Origin: an uncultured Chloroflexia bacterium
GTDB taxonomy: Bacteria; Chloroflexota; Limnocylindria; Limnocylindrales; CSP1-4
Length of the DNA stretch: 64,000 nucleotides
Assembly (NCBI GenBank): GCA_963849495.1
Contig: CAWKHN010000015.1
Location: 294,723 to 358,722, forward strand
Direction of reading: 5' to 3'
The notes under the pieces are model-generated. The model was not told where the DNA came from. It saw only the letters and a list, made by a program, of their open reading frames with translations, and made no database searches. Shown piece after piece: positions 30,162-34,501 of the stretch. Position 1 is the stretch's first letter; each line of letters opens with the position of its first letter. The position numbers were made by a program, and so were the translations under genes.

Positions 30162-30638
30162 ATGCACACGCTCGCAACGCGGCTTCTCCGGGTCGCTCTT
30201 GTCGCCCTCCTGCTCGGAACCGTGCTCGCCCAGGTGCTCCTGACCGTATACGCATCCGAGGTCGGGACGAGATTTCCCGAAGTCGCCTACCTCGTCATCC
30301 CGTACTCGGTGGCCGCCATCCTGTTCATCGGATGCGGCCAGGTGGCGCTGCTCGTCGTCTGGCGGCTGCTGTCGCTGGTCGACGACGGGGTCATCTTCAC
30401 TCGCCGCGCCGTGCGCTGGGTCGACGTCGTCATGGCCTGCGCGGCGGTCGCCACGGTCCTGACCGCGGGCGTGTTGATCCACATGCTCAGCTTCGTCCCT
30501 GGTGGCGGCGGACCGATGATCTACTACCTGGCTGTCTGCATCGCCGGCGGGCTGGCGTTCATGCTCCTGATGATCGTCATGCGAGGCTTGCTCGAGTCGG
30601 CGATCGCCGACCGCACCGAGCTCGACGAGGTGATCTGA
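30162..30638 (+). CDS. DUF2975-type membrane protein
   Basis: 158 aa, 4 TM. Coupled (ATGA) to the small HTH regulator that follows; this pairing is conserved in Firmicutes and Actinobacteria. Confidence 0.7.
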   Translation: MHTLATRLLRVALVALLLGTVLAQVLLTVYASEVGTRFPEVAYLVIPYSVAAILFIGCGQVALLVVWRLLSLVDDGVIFTRRAVRWVDVVMACAAVATVLTAGVLIHMLSFVPGGGGPMIYYLAVCIAGGLAFMLLMIVMRGLLESAIADRTELDEVI

Positions 30639-30853
30639 TGGCCCTCGTCGTCGAGCTCGACGTCATGCTCGCCCGACGCAAGATGTCCGTGGGCGATTTT
30701 GCCAACGAGGTCGGCATCACGCCGGCGAACGTCGCCGTCCTGAAGAACGGACGCGCCCGAGCCATCCGGTTCACCACCCTGGACTCGATCTGCCGGGTGC
30801 TCGATTGCCAGCCGGGTGACATCCTCCGGTGGACCGTCGACCCGCCCGCCTAG
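30638..30853 (+). CDS. HTH XRE-family (YozG-like) transcriptional regulator
   Basis: 71 aa: MALVVELDVMLARRKMSVGDFANEVGITPANVAVLKNGRARAIRFTTLDSICRVLDCQPGDIL. Confidence 0.8.
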   Translation: MALVVELDVMLARRKMSVGDFANEVGITPANVAVLKNGRARAIRFTTLDSICRVLDCQPGDILRWTVDPPA

Positions 30854-30941: not shown

Positions 30942-31514
30942 TCACGCCCGGCGTCGCATCACCACGCGTGGGGTGCCGGCCGCGGCCTTGGACGTGGTCC
31001 GGGCCGCAACCGAGAACCCGGCCCGCTCGAACATCGATGCCGTGCCCGTGTAGACCGAGGCCGACGAGATCCGGCCGCCGCTGGTCGCGACCGGGTAGCC
31101 CTCGAGCAGGGTTGCACCGTGATCACGGGCGTATTCGACGGCCGCGTCGAGCAGTGCGCTCGCGATCCCGCTCCGCCGCGCCGTCCTCGCCACGACGAAG
31201 CAGTTGACGACCCACACTCCTTCCCCGGGGAGCTGCGGGATCGTTCGCGACCGGCCCAGCCGCCCGAACTCCTCGCGCGGACCCAGACCGACCCAGCCCA
31301 CGGCCGCGCCGTCCCGGAGCGCCACCAGCCCGGGGGCCGGATCGCGATCCACCAGCGCCCGCAGCGAGTCACGGTTGTCGTCGGCCGTGGTGTTCGACCA
31401 GTTCGATCCGGGCTTGCGCCAGAACTGGCACCAGCACCACTTCGGGTCGCCGCCTGCGGCGAACAGCTCGGCGAGCGCGGGCCAGACATCGGGCGAGGCG
31501 GGGACGATCTCCAT
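30942..31514 (-). CDS. GNAT family N-acetyltransferase
   Basis: 190 aa with CWCQFWR and a GNAT core (VVNCFVVARTARRSGIASALL). Confidence 0.7.
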   Translation of the reverse strand: MEIVPASPDVWPALAELFAAGGDPKWCWCQFWRKPGSNWSNTTADDNRDSLRALVDRDPAPGLVALRDGAAVGWVGLGPREEFGRLGRSRTIPQLPGEGVWVVNCFVVARTARRSGIASALLDAAVEYARDHGATLLEGYPVATSGGRISSASVYTGTASMFERAGFSVAARTTSKAAAGTPRVVMRRRA

Positions 31515-31579
31515 GCGGGACAGGGTAGGCCGTGAGTCCGGCCCCCGGTGCCGCCTCTCGACGGACGTGCGAGCCCCCC

Positions 31580-31975
31580 CTACGTCAGCATGTCGATCGA
31601 CGCGGTCGGGACGATCCCGTCGAGGCTGCGCGCCAGATCCTCGTCCAGGGTGATGAACGCGTCCGCCTGCAGCTGGGTCAGCGCAACGTACTCGGCGTCG
31701 TAGGTCGAGGCCCATCCCAGCTGGTCCGCCACGTCCCAGGCGCGGCGCCGGAGCACGGCGTCGCCGAGAAGCCTGATCGACATCCGCCCGATGTGCGCGA
31801 GGTGGTCACGCGCGACGTCGGCCTCGATCTCGCCCCGCTGGGCGGCCTCGTGCAGGGCCGAGAGCACCTGGGAGCGCAGGAGCGTCGGAGAGAGGAGCTC
31901 GTGCCCGCCCGGGATCTCGATCCCCGCGCTCGCCAGGTGCAGAACGGCGCTGGCGTCGACGACGAACCTGGTCAT
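31580..31975 (-). CDS. orphan PIN-domain (VapC-like) protein
   Basis: MTRFVVDASAV...TYDAEYVALTQ...FITLDEDL. ATG at 31975 after GAGGT. No antitoxin-sized ORF in the 150 bp upstream. Confidence 0.7.
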   Translation of the reverse strand: MTRFVVDASAVLHLASAGIEIPGGHELLSPTLLRSQVLSALHEAAQRGEIEADVARDHLAHIGRMSIRLLGDAVLRRRAWDVADQLGWASTYDAEYVALTQLQADAFITLDEDLARSLDGIVPTASIDMLT

Positions 31976-32129
31976 CGGGTACCTCGGGTGCGGTGCGAAG
32001 GAACGCGACAACACTACCTCTGCGTGCCTTCGCGCTCGCCTGGACGGCCAACCCGGGCGGTCGCCAGCCGCCTATCCTTGTCGTGATCGCCGTCGTCTCG
32101 TCCGCGCCGGTCCACAGGGAGGAATCCGC

Positions 32130-32534
32130 ATGCTGCGCCGGATGCTCGCCATCGGTCTCATCGCGCTGAGCGTCGTCGCATGCGGGGGGTCAACGGCAAC
32201 GCCATCGCCATCGGCCGCTGCGTCGGTCGCGCCGACCCTGACGCCGACCCTGACGCCGACCGAGCAGCCCACGACGGCGTCGACGACGATGACCGCGATC
32301 TGCAACGCGATCGGGGTGCGCAAGACGCCCTCGACGACGGGCGGGCTGGTGGCCCGCGTCAACAACGGGGCGACGGTCCACGCTGTCAATACGGTGACCG
32401 GCGATGCGTACACGGTGGGGGCCTGCGGCACGGGCGGCACCACATGGCTCGAGATCGACGAGATCAACGGCAAGACGGTCCAGTCGATGTATGGCGTGCC
32501 GTCCGTCTACTCCGCGGCCGGGCTGTTCCAGTAG
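32130..32534 (+). CDS. lipoprotein with a C-terminal SH3b-like domain
   Basis: Signal peptide plus lipobox (LSVVACGG) and a Thr/Pro-rich linker. GATVHAVNTVTGDAYTVGACGTGGTTWLEID resembles bacterial SH3. Confidence 0.6.
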   Translation: MLRRMLAIGLIALSVVACGGSTATPSPSAAASVAPTLTPTLTPTEQPTTASTTMTAICNAIGVRKTPSTTGGLVARVNNGATVHAVNTVTGDAYTVGACGTGGTTWLEIDEINGKTVQSMYGVPSVYSAAGLFQ

Positions 32535-32580
32535 GGGCTCGCCCGCGCACGGTTGTCCACCGGGGCGGTAGCCTCTCACC

Positions 32581-33510
32581 GTGACCCAGGAGAGCCGGCC
32601 GGAGGCCGTTCCGCTGCCCAGCGCGTGGGCGGCTCCATGGCGCGCGGAACCCGCCAGTCCGCGCTCGATCGTGGAGCTGCTGGCTGCCGGCGTGCTGGAC
32701 ACGGAGCTCGCGGCGCTGCTGTGGCTCCTGGTCGAGGCGCGGCTGCCGATCGTCGTCGCCGGGCCCTTCGGTGCCGGGCGCACGACGCTCCTGACCGCGC
32801 TGCTCGACTTCCTGCCCGCCGATGCGCGGCCCGTGCCGCTCGCCGGCGCGGAGGAGGACTTCGACTGGCTCCCCGAGGCGCCCGAGCTTGGCTGGCGCCG
32901 CGAGCGGACCGGCGCGGCGCGCGGTCGCGGTGCTGCGGCCAGCCCGGGCAACACGGTGCTCATGGTGCGGGAGCTGGGCGGGCGGCCCCCTGCGGGCACG
33001 TGGGGTCCGCGGGCCCGGATCGTCATCAGGGCGCTCGCGGTCGGGTACGGCATGGCGGCGACGATGATCGCGGGAGGCCTCGAGGACGTGTTCGCCACGC
33101 TGCACGCCGCACCAGTGAGCGCGGACGACGACGAGCTGGCCCGGCTCGGGCTCGTGCTCGTGGTGAACGCGTTCCCCGACGAGACGGCGAGCCGCGAACC
33201 GCGCCGCCGGGTGGTCGCGGCCCACTACGTGCGCCCGGTCGTCCGCGACGCGCACGGCCACGTCCAGAGACTGCCCCCGGCCGTTCTGGCCGCGCACGAG
33301 CCGCGGACCGACCGCCTCGAGCACTTCGCCTGGGGGATCGTGGGCGAGCTGGCCGGCCGAACCGGGCGCCCGTCGATCGACTTCGAGCGCGAGCAGGCGC
33401 AGCGGGCCGGCTACCTCGCGGGGCTGGTCGCGGGCGGGATCAGCGACCCGGACGACGTGCGAGCCGCGATCGCCGGCTACCGGGGCACCGAGGGCGATCG
33501 GCCGGCCTGA
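32581..33510 (+). CDS. CpaF/TadA (T2SSE/VirB11)-family ATPase homologue with a degenerate Walker A (probable pseudo-ATPase)
   Basis: ELAALLWLLVEARLPIVVAGPFGAGRTTLLTAL aligns to the CpaF LNIVVSGGTGSGKTTLLNAL block, but the Walker A Lys is Arg. LMVRELGG aligns to the Walker B region (IIVGEVRG). The His-box region (GYGMAATMIAGG) lacks the His. Confidence 0.6.
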   Translation: MTQESRPEAVPLPSAWAAPWRAEPASPRSIVELLAAGVLDTELAALLWLLVEARLPIVVAGPFGAGRTTLLTALLDFLPADARPVPLAGAEEDFDWLPEAPELGWRRERTGAARGRGAAASPGNTVLMVRELGGRPPAGTWGPRARIVIRALAVGYGMAATMIAGGLEDVFATLHAAPVSADDDELARLGLVLVVNAFPDETASREPRRRVVAAHYVRPVVRDAHGHVQRLPPAVLAAHEPRTDRLEHFAWGIVGELAGRTGRPSIDFEREQAQRAGYLAGLVAGGISDPDDVRAAIAGYRGTEGDRPA

Positions 33511-33711
33511 CGGACGGGGCCGTGAGGCCGGGGACCGGCTCCCGTTTCCGAGGTCCGCGCCCGCGGGCGGCGGGCTGCTCGCGTGCCTGTTGTGCACCGT
33601 GACCCGATCGAGCGCCACGGCGGTCTCGTGTCGTACAGTTCCGGCCGGGCGCGGCCCGACCTGACCCACATGGGCCGGGTTGCCGGTCGCGCGGTTCACA
33701 GGGAGGTGCGC

Positions 33712-34203
33712 ATGCTCCAGTTGTTCCTCGTCCTTCACGTCCTGGGCGCGATCGCGGTGTTCGGCCCGACGTTCGCGTTTCCGCTGATCGCGAGACACGC
33801 CAGTAGGGAGCCGCAGCACGGGCACTTCGCGGCCGTCGTGACCGACGCCATCGAGCGCCGGATCGTCATCCCGGGCGCGATCGTCCAGGGGATCACGGGC
33901 GTTGCGCTGATCCTGGTGCTCGGCCTGAACCTCACCGACCCGGCGTGGCGATGGCTGATCCTGGGTATCGTGCTGTACCTGATCGCGGTCGCGTACGCCG
34001 TCTTCGTCCAGGCACCCGCGTCGGAGAAGATGGTTCACCTGACGGCCGGCGGGCCGCCCGCCGGGGCACCGCCTGCGGGGGCACCCGCCGGTCCGCCCCC
34101 GGAGCTCGTCGCGACCGCGAAGAAGCTCCAGCAGGGTGGAATGTTCCTGAGCGTCATGATCGTGGCGATCGTGATCCTGATGGTGACGAAGCCCATGGGA
34201 TGA
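33712..34203 (+). CDS. DUF2269-like membrane protein
   Basis: ATG at 33712 after GGGAGG. 4 TM segments and a Pro/Ala-rich loop. Confidence 0.55.
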   Translation: MLQLFLVLHVLGAIAVFGPTFAFPLIARHASREPQHGHFAAVVTDAIERRIVIPGAIVQGITGVALILVLGLNLTDPAWRWLILGIVLYLIAVAYAVFVQAPASEKMVHLTAGGPPAGAPPAGAPAGPPPELVATAKKLQQGGMFLSVMIVAIVILMVTKPMG

Positions 34204-34501
34204 GGCCGCCGGATGCGGTCGACCGCGGTCGAGCGCGGTCGGACGGGGAACCCGTCCGACCGCCCGGCCCGCCGGACAGGCGGCCGGTCGGCCCGCCGGC
34301 GCGGGCCATGCAGCCCCCGAACCCTGACCGCCGGCCCGGTCGGGGGCGCCCTTCTGCCCTCGCAATCGTGGATCTCCTGCGTCAACCTTGACGGGCGGCC
34401 CGGCCTCGTGGCCGGGCGGTCCCGTAGCGGCCGGCTCGTCCTCGCCTGGTCCGGCCGCGCGCGGCTACCATCTGTCCGACACCCGCAGGAGACCGTTTCC
34501 G

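Follow-up and report, generated by a model that had tools for sequence, protein, structure and literature searches.

A candidate pseudo-ATPase of the FlaI/GspE type that appears to have lost its AAA+ and VWA partner genes in a Chloroflexota lineage

The window analysed here is a stretch of 64,000 nucleotides (G+C content ~72%) from the genome of an uncultured Chloroflexia bacterium (contig CAWKHN010000015.1, positions 294,723 to 358,722), and our subject is a gene within it that encodes a 309-residue protein with an ATPase domain (Table 1). We consider it rather likely that the product is a cytoplasmic, catalytically inactive derivative of the FlaI/archaeal-GspE type of ATPase domain, which was retained and outlived an apparently undescribed three-gene module, and that it is not a secretion motor. 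An earlier, sequence-only reading had described the open reading frame, which is present as described, as a stand-alone homologue of the CpaF/TadA-family secretion ATPases with a disabled active site, perhaps working together with a neighbouring lipoprotein and a membrane protein. The homology and the damage to the active site are borne out below, the family assignment is not, and the isolation of the gene appears to be secondary.

Fold, family and active site of the window protein

Searches with single models gave partial or sub-threshold matches. The Pfam model T2SSE (PF00437) matched residues 31-83 only, at E=1.8e-5 and 24.0 bits, below its cut-off of 24.9, and a canonical relative, that is one with an intact active site, likewise fell under this gathering threshold with 21.3 bits. 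Matches to the NCBIfam models for FlaI (5e-10) and for TadA-like ATPases (2e-9) were both far under the cut-offs, the FlaI/ArlI model (NF058587) reaching 38.7 bits against a cut-off of 550 and being covered over positions 245-417 of 527, and a VirB11 model in the same collection matched weakly. A profile of 120 family members, searched against the PDB, matched archaeal (Archaeoglobus) GspE 2OAP at 8e-15 over residues 223-498 and Sulfolobus FlaI 4II7 at 3e-13 from residue 217, compared to E=0.087 for CpaF. With the AlphaFold2 model of the window protein (mean pLDDT 90.6), Foldseek found FlaI and afGspE at E~1e-16 (TMq 0.63-0.69), and CpaF structures at E~1e-8 (TMq 0.48-0.49). The window protein is a member of the secretion-ATPase superfamily with a RecA-like C-terminal ATPase fold, a homology that goes beyond chance, and its closest kin is the C-terminal ATPase domain of archaeal FlaI/GspE rather than CpaF/TadA.

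The proposed CpaF/TadA identity was therefore rejected. The Tad-pilus ATPases have the superfamily and the RecA-like core in common with the window protein, but it matches them much less well (E=0.087 and TMq 0.49, against 1e-13 to 1e-15 and TMq 0.66-0.69 for FlaI/GspE), and a tad locus with TadB/TadC, the Flp pilin and CpaC was not seen in the neighbourhood or in related loci. FlaI/ArlI and archaeal GspE (4II7, 4IHQ, 2OAP) give the best match, which spans the C-terminal ATPase domain in full, down to its FlaI-type helical C-terminal part, and the correspondence runs position by position through Walker A, the Asp-box glutamate (E92), the catalytic glutamate and the His box. The window protein differs from them in the substitution of K268, of the His box and of several other residues, and in the missing N-terminal (N2/NTD) domain, in place of which only ~25 poorly conserved residues precede the ATPase domain. 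In secretion ATPases this domain packs on the adjacent subunit within the hexamer. Nor is the protein an archaellum ATPase proper, given the partial, sub-threshold match and a locus in which ArlJ, ArlH, ArlB and archaellin genes were not found; genuine archaellum clusters of Chloroflexota encode ArlJ and further cluster components beside an ArlI of full length (PMC12488501).

To delimit the family, we scored 8,000 candidates in a protein-database search, which returned 872 homologues at E<=0.001. In an exhaustive profile search the number of cluster representatives was 214 at E<=1e-30 and rose to 891 at E<=1e-10. Among the species-representative genomes scanned, 255 contained relatives; 80 loci were kept, and 78 of these have records that name Chloroflexota or a lineage within it, most often Limnocylindria. 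The proteins are ~270-310 residues long and consist of the C-terminal RecA-like ATPase domain only. Among the 120 best homologues the Walker A position is occupied by lysine in 87 and by arginine in 32, and 74 combine K67 with the His-box histidine. The family is usually canonical, with intact Walker A, catalytic glutamate and His box. Canonical members are 53-62% identical to the window protein over its full length, and their loci are syntenic with the window locus (GNAT ... ATPase ... DUF2269-aldolase). The sequence-only reading had held that orthologues with a canonical Walker A motif inside tad/cpa loci would make the protein simply a diverged pilus ATPase: the canonical GK[ST]T is indeed the common state (87/120), but the genes beside it encode AAA+ and VWA proteins and not tad/cpa components.

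Public names of family members are inconsistent ('energy-coupling factor transporter ATP-binding protein EcfA2', 'flagellar protein FlaI', 'hypothetical protein'), and none of them suits the evidence gathered here. In two distant representatives, P0243 and P0143, the P-loop is wholly lost (e.g. VAGPGGPAGAVGG, SGEDAAGRAGHV), so that catalytic decay seems to be recurrent in the family.

In the window protein the Walker A pattern GxxGxGK[ST] is replaced by GPFGAGRTT, with R67 aligned to FlaI K268 in the profile alignment, which upholds the lysine-to-arginine change noticed earlier. The catalytic glutamate is present (E131, equivalent to FlaI E336), and its surroundings, LMVRELGG, align to the LVGE(I/V)R block of FlaI/GspE, as had been proposed. 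The His box (T-x-H) is lost, again in agreement with the earlier description: the window protein reads ATMIAGG where the family has ATIHADS, and I163 stands at the position of the histidine that is invariant in the family consensus (GYGLAATIHADS, with the core TIHAD). The remaining consensus blocks of the family are A..G.GK[ST]T and VLL[IV]PELSDHLP.Y, and the ELSDHLP.Y of the latter has become ELGGRPPAG. Altogether ~10 active-site positions at which canonical members show little or no variation carry replacements (K67R, E86P, S133G, D134G, H135R, L136P, Y139G, H163I, D165G and R196N).

A conservation comparison showed that the degenerate ('R-type') subgroup, to which the window protein belongs, has changed together at K67R, E86P/R, S133G, L136P, Y139G, H163 (to T, A or I) and I162M. 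Residues E131, H135, R196 and R209 are less constrained in this subgroup; E131 is present in 59% of R-type sequences, and glycine is a common substitute. R67, in contrast, is 100% conserved in the degenerate clade, as are G66 and T69, and the replacements R67, G133, P136 and G139 are conserved ones, not random drift. The invariance of R67, G66 and T69 suggests that the P-loop still has a role, plausibly in binding an anion or a nucleotide. Canonical and degenerate groups share 88 conserved positions, and H215, R218, P219, R222, D223, G226, H227 and P233 are invariant in the 120 sequences.

The C-terminal beta-hairpin region (33217-33285 and 33322-33324) holds an invariant cluster of histidine, aspartate and arginine residues (H215, R218, R222, D223, H225, H227 and H248), common to active-type and dead members. 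This cluster might be a metal or ligand site, a point of note since the partner genes described below are chelatase-like.

AAA+ and VWA genes in related loci and in the window lineage

We used tblastn to set the window against 89 related loci. Similarity to AAA+ and/or VWA proteins lies downstream of the ATPase gene in 73 of the 77 loci that have the Walker A lysine, and to both except at contig ends. The gap between the ATPase gene and its partner genes is usually 0-100 bp, and the string is followed by DUF2269 and a class II aldolase gene. Two of the four exceptions (L070 and L076) lie on contigs that end <3.5 kb from the gene, and the other two (L011 with 4.6 kb, L081 with 8 kb of downstream sequence) are without either partner. 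The AAA+ partner (~480 residues) matches the BchI, BchD and cobaltochelatase ATPase models and is BchI/MoxR-like, while the VWA partner (~710 residues) carries the Pfam domains Mb0984_helical, Rv0959_3rd and VWA_2; as judged by sequence, the two are homologues of mycobacterial Rv0958 and Rv0959. A Chloroheliales-like lineage has the order ATPase-AAA+-VWA again with entirely different flanking genes, and Dehalococcoidia-type genomes have the order nadABC-VWA-ATPase, with a gap of 11-12 bp and canonical ATPases. Because the link of the ATPase with AAA+/VWA genes recurs in distant Chloroflexota with other flanks, it exceeds what shared ancestry of neighbouring genes would give.

In two of the Dehalococcoidia-type loci (L092:897-8819 and L094:1-7834) the VWA-ATPase pair directly follows miaB-like, nadA, nadB and nadC genes, with no adjoining AAA+ gene, and the AAA+ partner in such genomes may be unlinked or absent. 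The Rv0958-like AAA+ protein (L005:8925-10355 and orthologues) is itself extremely conserved, at ~80-95% identity within Limnocylindria, and the Chloroheliales-like copy (L090) is also closely alignable. Its motifs are unusual, with GERGQAKT at the Walker A site and INELPD at the Walker B site, where asparagine replaces aspartate.

Genes for a platform protein, pilin, secretin or peptidase were found neither in the window locus nor in >90 related loci. Pfam annotation of the genes around the window gene, and of the orthologous locus L089, likewise showed no pilus or secretion partner, and the earlier observation that no pilus locus lies nearby is upheld. PADLOC returned no significant match for the ATPase, AAA+ or VWA proteins, and a known type of anti-phage defence was rejected on this ground.

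The R-type loci differ from this pattern. Both partner genes are missing from 10/10 of those in this survey (the window, L001-L003, L007-L010, L012 and L077), and all ten have a co-directional SH3 lipoprotein gene 12-47 bp upstream of the ATPase gene; a 95%-identical orthologue outside the survey (L089) shows the same arrangement. L087 belongs to the degenerate clade and is without both partners and also without the SH3 gene, which overall occurs in 10/12 degenerate loci (not in L087 or L088) and in no locus with an intact Walker A lysine. Where relatives carry ~3.6 kb with the AAA+ and VWA genes, the window has an intergenic gap of 202 bp, and low-stringency tblastn (E<=1) found no AAA+ or VWA remnant in this gap or in the whole window. 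On this comparison of loci, both partner genes appear to have been cleanly deleted between the ATPase gene and DUF2269 in the window lineage, which would make the stand-alone state derived and secondary: the gene has no partners now, as had been noted, but it would not have started out alone. Identities of the class II aldolase, 0.79-0.99 within the degenerate clade versus 0.70-0.82 to others, indicate that the genomes of these R-type loci, the window included, form a coherent organismal clade. In Limnocylindria, loci of both types almost always have DUF2269 downstream (locus table), and its adjacency is inherited synteny common to canonical loci. Outside Limnocylindria, neither the SH3 nor the DUF2269 gene accompanies the family.

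The degenerate gene remains under selection. Pairwise ratios of non-synonymous to synonymous substitution (dN/dS) are 0.19-0.38 within the degenerate clade versus 0.06-0.30 for canonical pairs, ATPase identity in the degenerate clade is ~10 points lower at matched aldolase identity, and the open reading frame is intact in at least nine genomes of the clade. From the dN/dS values and the matched-identity comparison, in a clade whose depth approaches that of the class as sampled, constraint is about halved yet clearly present. The protein thus combines homology to active enzymes, substituted catalytic residues and purifying selection, and the category of pseudo-ATPase, proposed earlier, fits it well, with loss of activity predicted from the wrecked active site.

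A retained subunit and alternative explanations

We postulate an ancestral module in which a FlaI-like C-terminal domain alone was encoded in a tight string with an Rv0958-family AAA+ and an Rv0959-family VWA protein. In other AAA+/VWA pairs the VWA protein docks the target and the AAA+ ring remodels it; the ancestral module was probably like them, with the FlaI-like domain as a partner-dependent third NTPase. The isolated C-terminal domain of Pyrococcus FlaI is monomeric and hydrolyses ATP only once the N-terminal domain is supplied, and FlaI E336A is inactive (PMC6011876). Since the isolated FlaI domain is inactive alone, a family made up of this domain only is likely to depend on partners, for which the adjoining AAA+ and VWA proteins would be the obvious candidates. 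In the window lineage the AAA+ and VWA genes would have been deleted and the active site disabled, with the fold and the invariant surfaces still selected. The window protein would no longer hydrolyse ATP, although phosphate or nucleotide may still be bound at its G-x-G-R-[ST]-T loop, which is strictly conserved. It would persist as a binding or scaffolding subunit, through surfaces that vary in neither active nor dead forms, namely the helices at the N-terminus, WLPEAxELGW and the C-terminal hairpin rich in His and Arg, and would drive no pilus or secretion system. A more far-reaching version, which we offer tentatively as possible rather than probable, is that the canonical relatives define an undescribed cytoplasmic three-protein machine of Chloroflexota, composed of a motor ATPase of the type IV filament superfamily without its N-terminal domain, a chelatase/MoxR-like AAA+ protein and an Rv0959-type VWA protein, and that the window protein is a dead-subunit derivative that outlived the machine in a hydrolysis-independent role.

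Several known systems offer partial likenesses. The partner genes of the relatives belong with the AAA+/VWA pairs (Mg-chelatase BchI/BchD, cobaltochelatase CobS/CobT, MoxR-VWA and Rv0958/Rv0959), but a FlaI-like third protein is not known in these, and the window is without both partner genes. A precedent for a FlaI/GspE-type ATPase linked to MoxR-vWA pairs comes from Thaumarchaeota, where vWA and MoxR/GvpN pairs stand beside type IV pilus loci (Makarova, Koonin and Albers 2016, PMC4858521). There, however, the ATPase is full-length, the pilus locus is complete, TadC and pilins included, and the vWA protein resembles ArnB, whereas the Chloroflexota family loci are without pilus components and their ATPase is the C-terminal domain only. 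That a dead P-loop protein can be useful is illustrated by FlaH/ArlH, a RecA-fold archaellum protein that binds ATP without hydrolysing it and acts by interaction (PMC6011876); this remains an analogy, as FlaH/ArlH is KaiC-like, keeps the Walker A lysine, has an archaellum role and is homologous only in the RecA fold. Our literature search, incomplete in coverage, found no description of a FlaI-like C-terminal-domain-only protein coupled to an AAA+/VWA pair, nor a paper on a link between FlaI-like ATPases and MoxR/vWA proteins beyond archaeal pilus loci. In the literature found, Rv0958 and Rv0959 have incidental mentions only, with no characterised function.

A number of observations weigh against the proposed course of events. 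In L088 (8001-12047) the ATPase reads GERALGRRS and has lost the catalytic glutamate and the histidine, and the AAA+ and VWA genes are intact and highly conserved; in L004 and L026 the lysine and both partners are kept while the DH and His-box residues are lost. Owing to these three loci, loss of catalysis and loss of partners cannot be strictly coupled. Much of the synteny in Limnocylindria is shared descent, the aldolase gene, for example, being always near, and our search for partners covered 64 kb of the window genome, so that AAA+ and VWA genes could sit elsewhere in it. K-to-R P-loops sometimes retain weak activity, and the window protein still has E131. A neighbour-joining tree places L088 at the base of the degenerate clade, but we rejected it as an ancestral intermediate, as L088 and the canonical locus L078 share 90% and 88% identity in their AAA+ and VWA proteins but no more than 55% in the ATPase. 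L088 probably represents an independent, accelerated degeneration, with its basal position a product of long-branch attraction. In some lineages, the catalysis of this subunit seems to be dispensable to the AAA+/VWA pair.

Of the other explanations, one would have the dead ATPase recruited to a new, membrane-associated function with the SH3 lipoprotein and possibly DUF2269, close to what the sequence-only reading had suggested. We regard this as unlikely in its own right; it is compatible with a retained, inactive ATPase domain as a version of the present-day role. The SH3 gene, close upstream in most degenerate loci and absent wherever the lysine is intact, is what recommends it, and ongoing purifying selection implies some function. 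Direct contact is unlikely, though, between an extracytoplasmic lipoprotein and an ATPase that has neither a membrane segment nor a signal peptide, the degenerate locus L087 is without the partners and without the SH3 gene as well, and a co-occurrence confined to a single clade amounts to one evolutionary event. The adjacency of DUF2269 is equal in canonical loci and missing in distant lineages, and the suggested system with both flanking genes is weakly supported. It is also quite unlikely that the gene is a relic without function, in slow decay since the loss of its partners and so far undisrupted. The two-fold relaxation of constraint, the lost active site and the replacement of the catalytic glutamate in ~40% of the clade would suit a relic, but not the intact reading frames across a clade whose aldolase identities reach down to 0.79, near the depth of the whole class sample, the dN/dS values well under 1, the 88 (near-)invariant positions, or the fact that the replacements R67 and G139 are themselves conserved.

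We find it decidedly improbable that the window protein is a non-catalytic regulatory subunit of an AAA+/VWA module relocated elsewhere in the genome. L088 does combine a degenerate ATPase with intact partner genes, and the Dehalococcoidia-type genomes, in which no AAA+ gene adjoins the VWA-ATPase pair, indicate that members of the module can be unlinked. Yet AAA+/VWA similarity was not found in the 64-kb window, none of the best 120 of >5,500 VWA relatives lies on a contig that matches one of the degenerate clade in length (contigs of 2.19 and 2.69 Mb included; a weak negative), and a clean deletion at the ancestral site is simpler than relocation. Hardly credible, and already contradicted, is a CpaF/TadA-like ATPase that has diverged yet still serves as the motor of a pilus, a Tad system or secretion: the weak TadA-like (2e-9) and VirB11 matches and the CpaF fold matches at E~1e-8 are set against the missing N-terminal domain, the loss of multiple catalytic residues, the absence of platform, pilin, secretin and peptidase genes from the loci surveyed, and the far better matches to FlaI and afGspE.

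Secretion and pilus ATPases are normally taken as markers of envelope machines, and a FlaI-type domain that stands alone with AAA+ and VWA proteins would be a different use of the fold. The public names given to family members show how motif-based annotation can mislead. The window lineage could serve as a natural experiment, in which partners were deleted, the active site disabled and the protein kept for long, so that a structural or binding role is separated from catalysis. As the partner genes are homologous to M. tuberculosis Rv0958/Rv0959, the association could guide experiments on those proteins, and a three-protein machine, if true, would be the first functional handle on a family conserved in mycobacteria. 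A dead enzyme alone would be a modest finding; more is to be gained from the module seen in relatives and from the natural uncoupling of structure and catalysis.

Neighbourhood of the gene

Positions of the gene, of its motifs and of the adjoining genes are collected in Table 1. Other neighbours carry Lactamase_B, PEBP, GNAT, RsgA, ABC transporter, DUF2975 and HTH, a further GNAT and a weak PIN match and, past the SH3 lipoprotein and DUF2269 genes, class II aldolase, GNAT, APH, Metallophos, DAO/GCV_T and inositol phosphatase annotations. A scan of 31900-34300 for promoters and terminators gave zero consensus matches, the consensus being little informative at this G+C content.

Table 1. Coordinates of the ATPase gene, its motifs and adjoining features in the window
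Feature	Position	Strand	Evidence
ATPase-domain gene (309 aa, GTG start), degenerate 'R-type' member of the Chloroflexota family	32581..33510	+	Open reading frame, Pfam/NCBIfam, profile, AlphaFold2, Foldseek
P-loop GPFGAGRTT, residues 61-69	32761..32787	+	Sequence; R67 codon at 32779-32781
Walker B/catalytic-Glu block VLMVRELGGRPPAG, residues 126-139	32956..32997	+	Motif tables; FlaI/afGspE alignment
His-box block GYGMAATMIAGG, residues 155-166; I163 in place of the histidine	33043..33078	+	Motif tables, alignment
C-terminal motif AAHYVRPVVRDAHGHVQRLPPAV, residues 213-235	33217..33285	+	Near-invariant in active-type and degenerate members (conservation tables)
Intergenic gap, 202 bp, putative deletion site of the AAA+/VWA genes	33511..33712		Locus comparison, tblastn
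SH3b-domain lipoprotein gene, co-directional, 46 bp 5' of the ATPase gene	32133..32534	+	Weak Pfam SH3_3 match; signal and lipobox MLRRMLAIGLIALSVVAC read from sequence
DUF2269 membrane-protein gene	33713..34203	+	Pfam DUF2269 E=9e-15; ribosome-binding site and ATG at 33713 read from sequence

Upstream of these features (30162-30853) lies a gene for a DUF2975 membrane protein, whose stop overlaps the start of the next gene, for a 72-residue HTH_26 (Cro/C1-type) regulator. The pair is absent at the equivalent position in the annotated loci L002-L006 and L089 and, being without counterpart there, looks like an insertion. A 144-residue open reading frame on the minus strand (31580-32014) has a weak PIN match (E=0.009, under the cut-off) and no adjoining antitoxin-like gene; its orthologue in L089 has 131 residues and is without Pfam match. 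This frame overlaps the 5' end of the GNAT open reading frame (30942-31715) by ~135 bp, and owing to this overlap the start of the GNAT gene is probably further downstream than listed.

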